Positions 18,001-30,000 of a stretch of 64,000 nucleotides of DNA are shown here, piece after piece (positions within the stretch are counted from its first letter, which is position 1; the number at the start of each line of letters is the position of its first letter). The stretch lies in NCBI RefSeq assembly GCF_030013205.1, contig NZ_CP122649.1. The stretch is one strand, 5' to 3'. The position numbers were made by a program. Source of the stretch: Escherichia coli (GTDB lineage: Bacteria > Pseudomonadota > Gammaproteobacteria > Enterobacterales > Enterobacteriaceae).

Positions 18001-21000
18001 GTGAAAATGAAGAGGTCTTGGACCAGACAGCATTGAGCATGAAAGGAAGAAAAGTAACTTTTGGTGAACTGAACATCCCGAATGAAAGTTCCCTGGAAAC
18101 AAGAACGCTTCATTCAAACTTCACCCGGTTTACACAGGAGACTCGGGAAAAGGTTGAAATAGAAAAAAGGTTCGCAAATCTGATTAAGTGGATGGAGTTG
18201 TCGTCGATAAAAATGAGGACGCAGAAAGGATCACCATCACTGAGCAGAATTGCGCTGGATACCTGTAAGCAATGGGCCGAAAAGACAGGCTGGCAAAATA
18301 TGATAAATCGAGCTGCGGCGATGTGTCTGGGGCCAAAGAAGAAGGATGAGGAATATACACCGGATAAAGTAGTTTTATCGACGTTGCACGGTTCGAAGGG
18401 TCTTGAATGGAAAAATGTAATTATTATGAGTTGTAATGCAGATCAGATTCCAAGTAAGCGGTCAGTGGGGCAGGAGGCGATTGAAGAAGAAAGACGACTG
18501 CTTTTTGTTGGGTTTACACGAGCAGAGCAACAGCTGCATGTAATGTGGTACGGTGATCCGTCTTTCTTTTTAAGCGAATGTGCTGAAGATAAATTGAAAG
18601 AGGCTGCGAAAAGTAGAACAGAATCCCCTTTGACAGAATAATTTTGATTTCTTTATTTACAGGAATGAACCCGTGTAGTATAACGTATATGAGCTTGAAT
18701 TTATTGCTCCCACATTTCAAGTAACTTTATAAAAGTTACTTTGCGCGTTAAGCGCATATTCAGCCGTGAAAAGCGGCCAGCTTTCTAAAGCTGCAAGGCA
18801 CCACCGGCAAAATGTCACCTTTGTCGCTGGTGCCTTTCCCATGTCTGAAAAAGGACAATCGAATTTACCAAATCGTAACTAACTTAGCTCTTAATTGAGC
18901 TATTTTCGTTGCGTACTTCTAATGCCAGAAAGTATAAATCAGGCGGTTCATAGCTTACGGGAGATGAATGACAGGCTTTGCCTTTGTGTTGGGATATTTA
19001 ATGATTCCTTCCTTCTTACTATATATAGGTGACCCCAAATGTCTAAAAGTAAAGCACGCAGTAAAGCTCTTCTCATCGCCTTCGCTGATCTGATCCCAGA
19101 TATGGATAAGGTGGTTAACAAGAAGTTATTGGATTCTCTGAATGTTTATTCAGGGCATGATAATGACCTTATTGTTATTATGAATGAAGATGGTCCAACC
19201 ATAATTGAACTGAATTCTTTGAAATCAGTTTCAATGCTGGCTCAAAAGCTTTCTGCTTTTTCTACTTATTATCATGTGGAAATGCAGCAAATTCTTGTCA
19301 ATCCAATTGACTTTGAGAAAGCTTACACACTTCTCAAAGAAGCACCTGCAATTCCAATGTTTAAAACTTTAGCCGATCTGGATAAGTTCTTAAATGAAGA
19401 GTTTGAAAAGTACGGGTTGAACACATTTCTTGATGTGGATAACCTTGATTATTCACTCGCTAAATCCAGAGAGTTAAAAAATGATCAGTTGGTTGCCTGG
19501 GTTTCTGAAATTATTGAGAAGCGCGAGAAATTAGCATTGCGTAATCGATTTAATGAAGTGACCAAAGCACATTATGAAACTGTAGATGCAATGTATGCAG
19601 CCGTTCGCCCATTAATGAAAGAGTTAGGTTTTCCTGATGAACTCATGTTACACACCTTTAGTGAATTGAGCGTTTTCGATTCCAAAGGCTGGGATTATGC
19701 TATCAAGTCGAAAATTGAGTTTCTCACTAAACGCGAGGAGCAATGTTTAGATTATCAAATGAAAGCAGATAAACGGCAAGCGACAGTTGATGAACTCTTG
19801 GCACAAATCAATAACGCTAAAACGGTAAAAGCACCAAGATCTTTTGGTCAGCTGTTTGGCTTTTCTGTTATTGCCATGATGACATTTATGTTCATTGTAA
19901 ACAAATTTATCTAATCCTGTTAAGGGGAAACCCTGACGGGGCTTCTCTTTGCTTAAATTGAGGAGAGAAGTAATGTCATATCTTGAATATGTTAATGAAG
20001 TAAAAGTGTCCGGGATAGTTATCAGTGCAATGGAGAAAGAAATGACTAGCGGAAACGTTGGGTTATTGATAAAGCTCAAAAACAGAATGAAAACTGAAAT
20101 TAATGGTGAAATTACTGAGAGAGAATTTTCGATTCAAATCAAAGTATCACCAGAGATGTATTCAGGCTGTTTCACTGGTATAAATCAAGGTGATGAGTTA
20201 ATGGTCTCCGGTTATCTTGTTGTGGATACCATCACATTGGAAGGGAGAGAGCATCCTCTTGACTACATGAGAGTAGTTGCAACAAGTAAGTTAGCTCACA
20301 TACCTAAACCTCCTAAGGGTTTTGGGCAAAGTAGCTTTAGACAGATCTGACATTTAAACCACCCAAAAGGGGAGAAATCCCTTCATGGGAGTTCTCCCTT
20401 AGGAGATCCCATGAAACAAAAAATAAGGCCGACTGCATTTTGCAGTAAGCAAATGGATTTTTTCTCTATATTCGATTTTGAAGAAGAGGAAAAAGAAATA
20501 ATAACTATAGTTGAGTCTCCACTTGACTATATAAATGATGCAATAGCCGCACAACAAAGTATTCAATCAGAAGATAAACATTCAGGCCCGGAACTGGAGC
20601 CTAGTGTGTCGGAAGATGTTGCTTTGCCTGGTAATTGTCCCAAACTACTCAAAAATCAAATTCTGCATGACATTAGTTTTGCTGCGGAAACTGATTATCT
20701 CTTCACTCTAGAAGAGTACAGTGCGGAGTTAGGTGGTCTGGTTTTTGACTGGGCCCCTGAAGATGTATATCAGTTATACGTCGTCGCAATGGAAGAGTCG
20801 TTGGAAAACGTAAGGCATCTCGTCATTACAAAATCACTCTATTCCACTGATGAATTCGGTAACATAACCGTGAATCCGCTTCTTGAAGCCGAAACACGGT
20901 GGTATATGTCGAAATCATTTGAGCTTACATGTGCCACTCATGGTATTGATGCTATTGAGTTCAGGTCAGAGCTTAAAAAAAGCTTATATGAATATACGCA

Positions 21001-27000: not shown

Positions 27001-30000
27001 CGGTGAAATCAAACCTGAGAGCCCTGTGTGGGTGTATCTCCGAAATCGAGGTCTTAATCGAGTTCTGAGCAACCTTCCCAAGGATTTAGGTCTGAACAAA
27101 CGACTTTACTACATGGATAAGTCACTGGAAAAACCCACGATTTACCCGGGAATGATCGCAATTTATCGCGATACCCGTGGGCGTCCTCTGACAATCCACA
27201 GAACGTTCGTCGAGTTAAATGGTGATAAGGCACATGTTGAGAATCCGAAACTGATGATGAAACCGCCTGCCGATATGACTGGCGGCTCAATTCAGCTGTA
27301 CGATCCACACTTCAATCCAGGTACCCGTACCTGGACGTTAGGTGTGGCTGAAGGCATAGAAAACGCGCTGTCAGTTACTGAAGCGACTTCAACACCGTGC
27401 TGGGCCGCGAGCTCTGCCTGGTGCCTTGAAAACGTTGAAGTGCCGGATAGTCTCCTGCCTCCCCCTGGTGTGAAAGTAATACAGTTTTACATCTGGGCGG
27501 ATAAGGATCTTGTGAATACAAAAGGCACTTCCCCGGGAATGGAGTCAGCTAAACGACTTCAGGAACGTATGAAAGAGTTTTTTGCAAAGCGATATCCCAC
27601 TTCAGAGCTGACAATTAAAGTCTTTGAACCTGATTTCGATATTCCTGTAGGGAAGAAAGGAGTCGACTGGAACGATGTACTAAAATTAACAGGACCGGAT
27701 GGATTCCCCGTAAAATGGGCTCCTGAATGTCTTGCTCAGCTTTAAATCCGATAACTCCCCCGCCTTTTCAGGCCGGGGGGGTTATCTCTTTAGTGTTTAT
27801 TTACGTTAAATCCTAAACAGATAATCCGATTTCCTTCGTGAAAATCACCTGTTATTCAGGTTTTTTTTACGGCTGAGATGCTTGCTCAGTTTAATAAATG
27901 TGCGATACATCTGGCTACGGTCGGTTGTATGACATGGTATATCCATAAAACTTAAAACCCCTGACGGGAGTATTACCGTTAGGGTGATGCTCATCGTTAA
28001 ATATCGGAGAGCATTGTTATGAATATTGAAAATCAAGATTTATTTAATACGTTCGCTGCTGTGATTTCATCTCATATCGTTGAGCAACCATCTTCGTGTT
28101 ATTACCTTCATGATAATGAAATTGACTTCACGATTTTAAAACACAGCATAATAGATAAAGACAAAAACCTGTTGTACGTTATTCGTCCTTCAGGAACCTG
28201 TTTGTTGCGTTGTGATAAATACTTCTTTCCGAATTACTATCTTACAAGTCGTGGAGATTATAAAGCATTTAAGTATGTGCATTTTAATCTTGCAACACGA
28301 GAAGCGGAAGAAATCACCTGGCAGCAAGCTTTTGAAATTTTGTCCAAGCCGGGAAGACCTCCATTAAGAGGTTCACTTGGTAAATTTGATTATTTAAAAC
28401 TTGTTATTGATGATCTTCGTGCGCGAGGGTATGCCGATTTCCTTCCAGCATACAACCTTGATGGCCTTCGTCACTTTGCAGTAAAGGATGAGCGACCATC
28501 ACTTGTCAGTTATATCGACAATGTCATGGCACTTTGCGCATAAAGATAACACATATTTTTACTACATCCCTGATGGCACCTCCCATCGGGGTGGCCCTCA
28601 GAGTTGAATCTGGAGGTCTTATGAAATTAGCTACAGATCTGGTCAATGCGGTTCTGATAAAGAATGGCATTGTACCAACTTCCATTAATGAGTTGCCTGT
28701 AACGTCGCTGGTAAAGCCATTGACACAAGTGCATCTCAGCCTGTATCTGAAAACAACGCATTTATCTCAGTTCGTCCCTGACTACGTTGAGTCTCTGAAA
28801 GATTGTCCGGTTTCGTATGATATCGGCCTTGAACTTCAGCAGTGTATCAACAGTGCTGAATTGCTCTGTGAAGACATGGAGTCACTTGAGTTTATCTCTG
28901 TATGGATAGAGCTCTATACGTGTAATTCAAAGCAACAGCGGTTTGAGAAAAGTAACTTTTCTTTTCGAACTGAAGATATCGAGCTGGCTAAGATGCTGTC
29001 TTGCTCGCATGAAATCTTAATAAGTCAGGCGGCTTGTTTCTGGCTTTTGTATTTTGAAGATTTCATGAAATATGTTCGTAATAGGCTCTGTGCATTACTC
29101 AGACAGGTTTTAATTTTGATTGCAGGACTGCGAAATGTATACCTGCAACGGAATGAAGATCAGTTGATTAAGAGAGTTAAGCACGGGAATGAAATGCTGG
29201 AGGTGACTCTTAAAGCTGTTGCACTATGTTCAATAGAAAGGTATCTGAAATCATATGCCTCTTTACGAACAGAAGCGGCGGCTTCTGGGTTTATCAAATG
29301 CATTCAGTCTTATATCAGTACTGGTTGGAGACATGGCTATATAGTCTGTCAATATTCAAAAAATGGACGGTCTCTTGGTAAGTCATTACCACTTTTTATA
29401 AAAGAGACATCTGAGCATAATATACAGAAACGTGTCAATCGCCTTATATCTTCCACGATTTCGGGGCGAAATAAAGATTTAGGTCTTTACGATTTCTGAT
29501 TAACATTACCCATCCGGGGATTACATCCCTGATGGGTGTAATCCCATTTTTTATTTAAGTGAGGATTACATGAAAATTATTGAGAAAATCATTAATGCAT
29601 TTCTGATATCGCGTAAACATTCAGTGAAGGTCAGTAATGTTATCTGCTTGAGTGGCACCGACGGTAAATTTACTGGAATATGCTGTGACGCCGATGTTTC
29701 ATTTGATTTTCTTTATTCGTATGCCCCCGCATACAGTTCAACATTTTTAGATATCCCGTTTCCTGGGTTTGAAGACCAGGACATCGCGGATTGTGTTAAA
29801 TGTCAGTTAGATGTAGTTAAAAATAAACGGAATCGGTCTTTTTTAATTGACCATATTAGATTTCCAGTTTCCTCAAGGGAAGGATTCACTCTGACACGCG
29901 GTGATAGTTACGACGTGACTGAATGTGAATATAATAAGGAACGATTGCTACATCTGACCCGACAAGGACGTTTTTGTGAAGACTATCTCACGTTCAAGGA

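Follow-up and report, generated by a model that had tools for sequence, protein, structure and literature searches.

We analyzed a 64,000-nucleotide stretch of the Escherichia coli contig NZ_CP122649.1 (the window) and found that a nine-gene operon within it, orf1 to orf9, represents a variant form of the hde-type (host defense evasion) locus that serves establishment and anti-restriction in MOBH elements. The window comes from the IncHI1 plasmid backbone, and the nine genes correspond to R27 genes R0002 to R0204 (Table 1), with the start of the R27 record falling inside the module. The operon shows homology to the locus in related elements, keeps its own synteny across diverged plasmids, retains intact catalytic motifs and is co-induced with the transfer (tra) genes. 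[quoted passage not shown] By analogy with those elements, the operon most likely helps newly transferred DNA to survive and become established, and we consider it an even call whether R0002–R0204 as a whole form a DNA-entry and establishment operon that is switched on with the transfer genes. An establishment or anti-defense role, which the initial annotation had offered as a guess, is the best-supported reading because orf4 is homologous to Vcrx089, which together with Vcrx090 provides type I restriction evasion in the recipient. The operon is an already noticed, conserved and real part of the IncHI backbone, not a categorically new system.

A conserved operon of IncHI plasmids is co-induced with transfer genes

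All nine open reading frames (ORFs) are present where they had been annotated, and RefSeq calls the same genes with the same starts on identical plasmids, including those at 19973 (orf2) and 21457 (orf4). The 8.8-kb region that holds them is 100% identical to IncHI1 plasmids, among them pHCM1 of Salmonella Typhi CT18 and plasmids of R27 type. More than 1100 further plasmids are ~60–80% identical to it at the DNA level; the one that we examined among these types as IncHI2. In pHCM1 the module lies directly downstream of the Tra2 genes trhF, trhW, trhU and trhN and the helicase gene trhI.

The gene order persists across five diverged IncHI-like lineages: IncHI1, IncHI2, two metagenomic lineages (L012 and L013) and Klebsiella IncHI1B. 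The common order is TraN, a lipoprotein on the minus strand, a UvrD-type helicase, orf1, orf2, orf3, AAA, orf5, DUF3150, VWA, orf8 and Toprim, with orf5 missing from IncHI1B. Amino acid identity is ~79% in IncHI2, and that of the DUF3150 protein is 47–52% in the two metagenomic lineages and 41% in IncHI1B. Because the order has been kept across such diverged lineages, we regard the nine genes as real and selected. A UvrD-helicase gene occupies the position of trhI in L012, L013, IncHI2 and IncHI1B, making trhI a conserved neighbor that stands outside the nine co-induced genes.

Expression data are available for R27, where a microarray study found the same nine-gene cluster up 5–23-fold at the conjugation-permissive temperature of 25 °C, together with the tra genes, and listed it with no assigned function (PMC7366339). 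Induction at 25 °C was 9.2-fold for orf1, 22.9-fold for orf3 (the highest of the cluster), 20-fold for orf5 and 8.7-fold for orf8 (PMC7366339). The ORFs, synteny, leader, closing hairpin and co-induction together bear out the earlier proposal that nine co-directional genes form one co-regulated module on a conjugative plasmid.

Table 1. Features of the IncHI operon and its flanks in the window, with R27 gene names.
Feature	R27 gene	Coordinates	Strand	Description
trhI		16785..18641	+	UvrD-type conjugal transfer helicase TrhI (IncHI-type, annotated), directly upstream of orf1
Palindrome		18719..18741	none	Leader; perfect, 10-nt arms, AAGTAACTTT-ATA-AAAGTTACTT
Inverted repeat		18795..18836	+	Imperfect, 17-nt arms, downstream of trhI
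Inverted repeat		18874-18913		Further leader inverted repeat
Candidate promoter		18909..18938	+	Sigma-70 type, TTGCGT-18 nt-TATAAA, inferred
orf1	R0002	19039..19914	+	Tail-anchored membrane protein, 291 residues
orf2	R0001	19973..20350	+	SSB/PriB-like OB-fold protein (predicted structure), 125 residues
orf3	R0210	20411..21397	+	328 residues; N-terminal QLDFFSIF motif, acidic stretch, two tandem repeats of ~100 residues
orf4	R0209	21457..22509	+	AAA+ ATPase, MoxR/CobS/NorQ/midasin clade; AAA_5, E 4.8e-31
orf5	R0208	22548..22817	+	Fast-evolving small protein, 89 residues
orf6	R0207	22888..24015	+	DUF3150 protein, E 2.8e-21
orf7	R0206	24093..26105	+	Zincin-like HExxH domain, acidic linker and VWA (Pfam matches)
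orf8	R0205	26177..26398	+	Small protein, 73 residues
orf9	R0204	26492..27745	+	Toprim (DnaG/plasmid primase-type) protein; DUF7146 and Toprim_3
Hairpin		27750..27786	+	Terminator-like, closing the operon; -28 kcal/mol, z -5.2

Homology links the operon to the IncC and SXT/R391 loci

A BLASTP comparison aligned orf4 with IncC Vcrx089 at 28% identity over 284 residues (E 5e-27); the SXT/R391 ATPase shows 59% identity to Vcrx089 and 30% to orf4. By this homology and its AAA_5 domain, orf4 is a Vcrx089-type ATPase without a detected CbbQ_C domain. In IncC plasmids, Roy et al. showed that vcrx089-090 protect pVCR94 from the type I enzyme of Vibrio cholerae O395, and that complementation works from the recipient and not from the donor, the plasmids used for this still carrying the DUF3150 and VWA genes (PMC7498323). 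Dimitriu et al. found that deleting vcrx089-090 from pKAZ3 raised restriction 424-fold for EcoBI and 906-fold for EcoKI (PMC11602122), and AntiDefenseFinder lists the pair as an anti-restriction-modification system (PMC11724313). The anti-restriction phenotype is documented for IncC pVCR94 and pKAZ3 only (PMC7498323, PMC11602122), and our literature search found no paper linking IncHI plasmids to the vcrx089_090 system.

The likeness to the IncC hde operon (vcrx089–vcrx093 and the downstream vcrx094/095) extends beyond the ATPase. The IncC locus reads traN ... AAA, a 302-residue protein, ssb, bet, exo, DUF3150, VWA ... toprim; its VWA and Toprim proteins are homologous to those of IncHI by direct comparison, whereas the DUF3150 proteins are linked via their Pfam family and an SXT/R391 intermediate, a tblastn search with orf6 being empty at the IncC locus. 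Both operons lie downstream of traN in a MOBH element of mating-pair formation type F (MPF-F), and both are co-regulated with transfer, by AcaCD in IncC and by temperature and the tra circuit in R27. In contrast to IncC hde, the IncHI operon shows no sign of Vcrx090, a canonical SSB, Bet or Exo; it encodes instead a PriB-like OB protein, a tail-anchored protein, the repeat protein orf3 and two small ORFs. The AAA, DUF3150 and VWA genes are contiguous in IncHI and split by vcrx090-ssb-bet-exo in IncC, and the CbbQ_C domain reported in Vcrx089 is undetected in orf4.

There is also collinearity with SXT/R391, whose locus comprises ssb, bet, exo, AAA, a 259-residue protein, DUF3150, a 146-residue protein, VWA, two small ORFs and toprim. 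In this operon (s089/ssb-bet-exo ... s073), AAA, x, DUF3150, x, VWA, x, x, Toprim run collinear with orf4 to orf9. Identity between the two is just 20–30%, and SXT differs in having Bet, Exo, a Vcrx090-like protein (the 259-residue one) and an intact Toprim zinc ribbon. The SXT operon is the strongest unit activated by the transfer master regulator SetCD (PMC4344509), and it is non-essential in standard matings (PMC2791158).

The AAA, DUF3150 and VWA genes recur across plasmids and ICEs

The DUF3150 family comprises 1339 clusters at 50% identity (E <= 0.001), and DUF3150 genes occur on ~2000 plasmid records with the IncHI query and ~1200 with an SXT-type query. A tblastn search of 50,697 phage records gave no match, from which we conclude that the family belongs to plasmids and ICEs and not to phages. 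In the literature, "DUF3150" surfaced only in one unrelated preprint.

In every locus with enough flanking sequence, an AAA_5 ATPase gene adjoins the DUF3150 gene, and a VWA gene accompanies it in most. The gene that follows is cut by the contig end in L007 and L013; of the two metagenomic contigs with AAA and DUF3150 (L007 and L009), VWA is confirmed in L009 only, and a Vibrio plasmid stretch has AAA and DUF3150 with no VWA gene annotated. Plasmid pCAR1 carries the bare trio AAA, DUF3150, VWA. Xanthomonas pLM159.1 reads SSB, hypothetical, PD-(D/E)XK nuclease, hypothetical, AAA, hypothetical, DUF3150, vWA, toprim, and a Citrobacter MOBH plasmid has SSB, RecT, exonuclease, a small ORF, MoxR, DUF3150 and VWA. 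On contig L009 (2072-4312), a 746-residue fusion of a YqaJ exonuclease with an AAA_5/CbbQ_C ATPase lies directly upstream of Vcrx090-like, DUF3150 and CobT/VWA genes, a Rosetta-stone arrangement that ties the ATPase to DNA-end processing.

AAA+, DUF3150 and VWA, usually with Toprim, are a conserved block of MOBH elements that normally stands beside an SSB-RecT-exonuclease set. By sequence comparison, the IncHI operon is a variant of this ancestral block, with a putative PriB-like OB protein replacing SSB-RecT-exonuclease. The trio keeps one and the same order across MOBH elements, and DNA-handling genes always surround it: orf2, orf9 and TrhI in IncHI, and SSB-RecT-exonuclease in IncC, SXT/R391 and related plasmids. 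Homologs of orf9 are found downstream of the VWA gene in SXT/R391, Xanthomonas and IncC, and the primase gene of the IncHI operon follows VWA as it does in SXT and Xanthomonas.

The DUF3150 proteins share a terminal feature. Among 100 diverse family members, 95 end in an aromatic residue, typically as WF, FF, YF or GW, against a background aromatic frequency of 6.4%. A disordered linker leads to this tip, often with acidic residues before it (window 24001-24015 in orf6). All four Vcrx090-like proteins also end in an aromatic residue (...HFF, ...YYF, ...YWF and ...CWF). The shared terminal peptide suggests docking on a common receptor, which could be the AAA+ ring or the MIDAS site, unless the tail mimics the SSB C-terminal peptide; it looks like a docking peptide that has not been described before. 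An impression by eye that Vcrx090-like proteins start with a WGR-like segment found no support in a Pfam search of their alignment, which came back empty, and we make no such claim.

The core proteins retain intact catalytic motifs

The earlier call of a MoxR/CobS-like AAA+ ATPase at 21457 holds. In orf4 both Walker A (GESGSGKT at residue 103) and Walker B (LLDEVD at 167) are intact, its closest solved relatives in the PDB are midasin, CobS, NorQ and CbbQ, and a Pfam search did not detect a CbbQ_C domain. The proteins outside the named domain calls had been described as lacking recognizable motifs, which is incorrect for orf6, the DUF3150 protein. In orf6, a small alpha/beta part at the N-terminus is joined by a long helical bundle, a disordered linker and, at the C-terminus, a conserved aromatic tip (…LTGW).

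The VWA call at 24093 is likewise supported, and to it we add an invariant HExxH motif. In orf7 the HExxH domain comes first, then a low-complexity linker that is acidic and variable, then a VWA domain whose metal-ion-dependent adhesion site (MIDAS) is complete. Across eight diverged homologs (20–63% identity), H70-E71-x-x-H74 and N129/D133/E137 are invariant in the first domain, as are D506-x-S508-x-S510, T577 and T604-D605-G606 in the MIDAS. PDB matches of the VWA part are NorD, CobT and BatB, and a PHROG annotated "peptidase" matches residues 31-113; a profile search of the HExxH domain against the PDB returned no CobT, NorD or peptidase match.

With intact Walker motifs in orf4 and a complete MIDAS in its neighbor orf7, the pair has the hallmarks of a MoxR-type remodeler. 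It shares AAA_5 Walker A/B motifs and a complete-MIDAS VWA domain with the MoxR-class systems CobS–CobT, NorQ–NorD, CbbQ–CbbO and midasin, which are also the best PDB matches of orf4 and orf7. The IncHI pair differs from them in having no chelatase, NOR or Rubisco partner, in the DUF3150 gene between AAA and VWA, in an HExxH domain with no match to the N-terminal parts of CobT or NorD, and in its context of conjugative DNA handling.

The zinc-ribbon/Toprim primase-like call at 26492 stands for its Toprim part and not for an intact zinc ribbon. In orf9, Toprim_3 (E 1.5e-9) and PHROG 510 "DNA primase" (E 4e-19) both match, and E287-G-x-E290, D337-x-D339 and DWNDVL are invariant, giving the Toprim glutamate and DxD signature. 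The four-ligand zinc ribbon of primases is degenerate in IncHI proteins (C63-x2-S66 ... C84-x2-H87, with IncHI1B lacking even C84), whereas the SXT and IncC Toprim homologs keep it intact (C-x2-H ... C-x2-C). From its sequence we class orf9 as a Toprim primase-type protein and putative primase. Plasmid and phage Toprim primases include RP4 TraC, ColIb-P9 Sog and P4 alpha, with which we compared orf9 without alignment. Proteins of this type have the Toprim core E-G-x-E plus D-x-D, as does orf9, which like plasmid primases is plasmid-borne, transfer-linked and matched by the PHROG "DNA primase"; at 417 residues it is much shorter, with no helicase domain and a degenerate zinc ribbon.

The OB-fold assigned at 19973 is borne out by the predicted structure of orf2, which is of the SSB/PriB type. 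Alignment against SSB by hhalign was negative, and orf2 has no significant sequence similarity to SSB or PriB. Bacterial SSB proteins end in an acidic DDDIPF-type tail, whereas orf2 ends in the non-acidic PKPPKGFGQSSFRQI, with a conserved C-terminus of the form PKPxKGFGxSSF. On the structural model, orf2 is an OB-fold protein and putative single-stranded DNA binder.

Evidence that weighs against an establishment role

Several observations count against assigning the operon a role in establishment. The identity of orf4 to Vcrx089 is just 28%, and the CbbQ_C domain reported for Vcrx089 is undetected in orf4. A hidden Markov model (HMM) built from four Vcrx090-like proteins gave nothing when run against the window translated in six frames (best E 0.52), and orf3 and orf5, considered as the missing Vcrx090 counterpart, were rejected with hhalign probabilities of 0.1% and 0.03%; BLASTP of orf3 against Vcrx090 and the 259-residue SXT protein also gave nothing. 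Because Vcrx090, one defining feature, is undetectable, the IncHI operon should not be filed as a member of vcrx089_090. No RecT or YqaJ match was found in the nine proteins with Pfam, NCBIfam or PHROGs, so the operon lacks both the RecT annealing protein and the YqaJ/lambda-Exo nuclease of an Ssb-Bet-Exo recombination system. A fold search with DUF3150 gave no functional lead.

Genetic and expression data add to these points. Transposon insertion sequencing (TnSeq) of IncC flagged vcrx089-093 only and not the DUF3150 and VWA genes (PMC7498323); the experiment could not reveal the latter, because its Cas+ and Cas- recipients were both restriction-proficient. In SXT, deletions of s067, s068 and s070 lowered transfer between laboratory strains by 10-fold at most, and s073 is not required (PMC2791158). 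The R27 deletion Del19 (R0206–R0210: VWA, DUF3150, orf5, AAA and most of orf3) is viable with normal stability; it is the only deletion covering five module genes and was assayed for plasmid stability only (PMC4853401). Finally, the cultures behind the R27 expression data already carried the plasmid and were not fresh transconjugants.

A proposed model for action on incoming DNA

We infer a mechanism for the operon, including each biochemical step, the target, recipient-side action of the IncHI version and action on incoming single-stranded DNA. Coated and primed by the OB-fold protein and the primase, the transferred single strand would quickly become duplex. The core machine would consist of three MoxR-type proteins, the AAA+ ATPase (orf4), the DUF3150 protein (orf6) and the VWA/MIDAS protein with its HExxH domain (orf7). 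The VWA MIDAS site and a DUF3150 adaptor, docking through its disordered linker and aromatic C-terminal tip, would target the AAA+ ring. The ATP-driven ring would then pull apart a host protein complex that threatens the new DNA, with the zincin domain perhaps cleaving that complex; by analogy with the documented activity of the Vcrx089 homolog, the target would be type I restriction enzymes. Orf1 would hold part of this machinery at the membrane, near the site of DNA entry.

A broader version of this model, which we regard as doubtful though far from negligible, would make AAA+, DUF3150 and the VWA-zincin protein an unrecognized three-component ATP-driven machine and the real host-defense-evasion engine of MOBH elements (IncHI, IncC, SXT/R391, IncT-like and IncP-7). 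DUF3150 and Vcrx090 would then be alternative adaptors that dock by their shared tail on the VWA MIDAS site or AAA+ ring, or the tail could imitate the C-terminal peptide of SSB and thereby trap SSB-interacting enzymes of the host. In that picture, the IncHI operon would be a reduced form that does without Bet and Exo and works with a PriB-like protein and a primase of its own.

The operon is conserved backbone in IncHI1 and IncHI2 plasmids, which are vehicles of multidrug resistance in S. Typhi and also of mcr-9 and tet(X4). The link to the IncC and SXT hde loci gives it a concrete, testable function in restriction evasion and establishment. The comparison also suggests that the two-gene vcrx089-090 system, whose mechanism is unsolved, is part of a larger MoxR/DUF3150/VWA machine. 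If so, the larger machine would explain how an AAA+ ATPase neutralizes type I restriction, and would offer one shared point of attack against the dissemination of resistance plasmids and ICEs from several major families.

Donor-side, replication and other roles

An unlikely but serious alternative is that the operon is a donor-side accessory, in which AAA+/VWA, anchored by orf1, help as a chaperone to assemble the IncHI mating apparatus or relaxosome, and the OB-fold protein, primase and TrhI support replacement-strand synthesis in the donor. The location of the operon inside or next to Tra2, directly after trhF/W/U/N and trhI, fits this idea, as do its induction with the tra genes in plasmid-bearing cultures at 25 °C, the membrane anchor of orf1, and the roles of its closest solved relatives (NorQ/NorD, CbbQ/CbbO and CobS/CobT) as maturation factors. 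However, the homologous IncC ATPase acts in the recipient and not in the donor, deletions of the homologous SXT genes lower transfer by no more than 10-fold, and elsewhere the block travels with SSB-RecT-exonuclease and not with mating-pair formation genes.

We think it distinctly improbable that the operon is a replication or primosome module by which the large IncHI replicon is replicated vegetatively or maintained, with the primase and PriB-like protein as its working parts and AAA+/VWA remodeling replication complexes. The intact Toprim motifs of orf9, the PriB/SSB fold of orf2, and the Tus-like gene and replicons further downstream are compatible with such a role. The R27 deletion Del18 (R0199–R0205), which includes the primase gene, was also not obtained despite repeated attempts (PMC4853401), but this failure cannot be assigned to the primase because Del18 also removes five unrelated paralogous genes. 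Loss of the Del19 genes had no effect on stability, and the SXT homolog s073 is dispensable. Moreover, the cluster is temperature-regulated like the tra genes, whereas repHIA goes the opposite way and is 2.4-fold down at 25 °C (PMC7366339).

A host-protecting anti-phage or anti-plasmid defense system of the MoxR-vWA type, which the initial annotation had raised from the occurrence of AAA+/vWA pairs in some conflict systems, is highly improbable and effectively excluded. PADLOC-DB v2 returned no system; its partial matches to the ATPases IetA, DolB and SspC (E >= 2e-5) are weak and short, covering the P-loop only (E ~1e-5 over ~40–95 residues), and the other eight proteins gave nothing meaningful, seven of them nothing at all and one a match of E 0.005 on the acidic linker. 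Apart from the HExxH domain no effector is recognizable, the block belongs to the backbone of conjugative elements and is co-regulated with transfer, and its characterized homolog is an anti-defense system.

The chance that the operon encodes a cobalamin cobaltochelatase CobS/CobT as metabolic cargo is practically nil, and this reading too is effectively excluded: the weak CobS similarity of TIGR01650 (E 6e-9), a "putative cobaltochelatase subunit" label and PHROG 249, annotated "porphyrin biosynthesis", are outweighed by scores far below the NCBIfam cut-offs (CobS model TIGR01650, 35.5 bits against 558.55; CobT model TIGR02442, 27.8 against 779.45), by the absence of CobN or any cob gene among the 45 features annotated in pHCM1 over 48.8 kb surrounding the module, and by partner genes that handle DNA. 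The initial annotation had named housekeeping CobS/CobT as one finding that would overturn its proposal, and the profile searches that it called for otherwise yielded AAA_5, DUF3150, VWA, and DUF7146 with Toprim_3 in Pfam.

Leader, terminator and small proteins

A palindrome had been noted in the long leader, and we find it as a perfect repeat that occurs once in the window, with 0 matches expected by chance. It is present in IncHI2 and not in L012 or L013, and is a possible, putative operator. The 3' arm (GCTGGTG) of the inverted repeat at 18795-18836 does not vary among four lineages, and the repeat could serve either to terminate trhI or as a leader structure. The candidate promoter lies within the best-conserved non-coding block of four IncHI-like lineages and is plausible from its sequence, and a consensus promoter scan did not call it. 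A strong terminator had been proposed at 27750; the hairpin there is stable and kept in position in three lineages with changed sequence, but its T-run is weak. Rfam searches of the leaders and operon gave sub-threshold chance matches only.

The C-terminal hydrophobic anchor of orf1 is kept in five lineages, in agreement with its annotation as a tail-anchored protein, and orf1 had no match in Pfam, NCBIfam, PHROGs or PADLOC. Orf3 arose as an internal tandem duplication of a domain of ~100 residues, and Pfam found nothing in its alignment. An orf3-like motif in a 166-residue ORF after the VWA gene of the Citrobacter MOBH plasmid (L017 12380-12880) was set aside as too weak (HMM E 1e-4, hhalign probability 38%). 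In the IncHI variant, orf1 and orf3 are additions specific to the lineage. Orf5 is found in IncHI2, L012 and L013, and an ORF of 72–76 residues occupies the orf8 position in IncHI2, L012 and IncHI1B; both proteins are positionally conserved with no database match. A Pfam search of orf1, orf2, orf3, orf5 and orf8 concatenated returned nothing even at E <= 10.

Neighboring regions of the window

Between the terminator-like hairpin and the next gene, a non-coding block at 27870-27995 is strongly conserved in IncHI1, IncHI2 and one metagenomic lineage. It contains two small hairpins, has no Rfam match, and could act for the next operon as a promoter/operator or as a small RNA. Directly downstream of the module, at 28534-33644, are five tandem ORFs of ~300–320 residues (R27 R0199–R0203), among which at least two pairs are diverged paralogs (27.6% identity over 312 residues and 26.7% over 101 residues). 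Further downstream, 36900-37859 encodes a plasmid-borne homolog of the DNA replication terminus-binding protein Tus, a gene with the same relative position in IncHI1B and L012.

Upstream of the module, pHCM1 has ~4.1 kb extra between trhN and the lipoprotein gene (L001 12668-17857, compared with window 15776-16784), comprising a hypothetical gene, an ATP-dependent helicase gene and a small ORF. Because this segment is missing from the window, we place the window in a different IncHI1 sublineage from pHCM1. At the far end, positions 54000-62000 have a GC content of 0.56–0.60, compared with 0.39–0.45 in the backbone, and are probably acquired cargo such as a transposon or resistance region.

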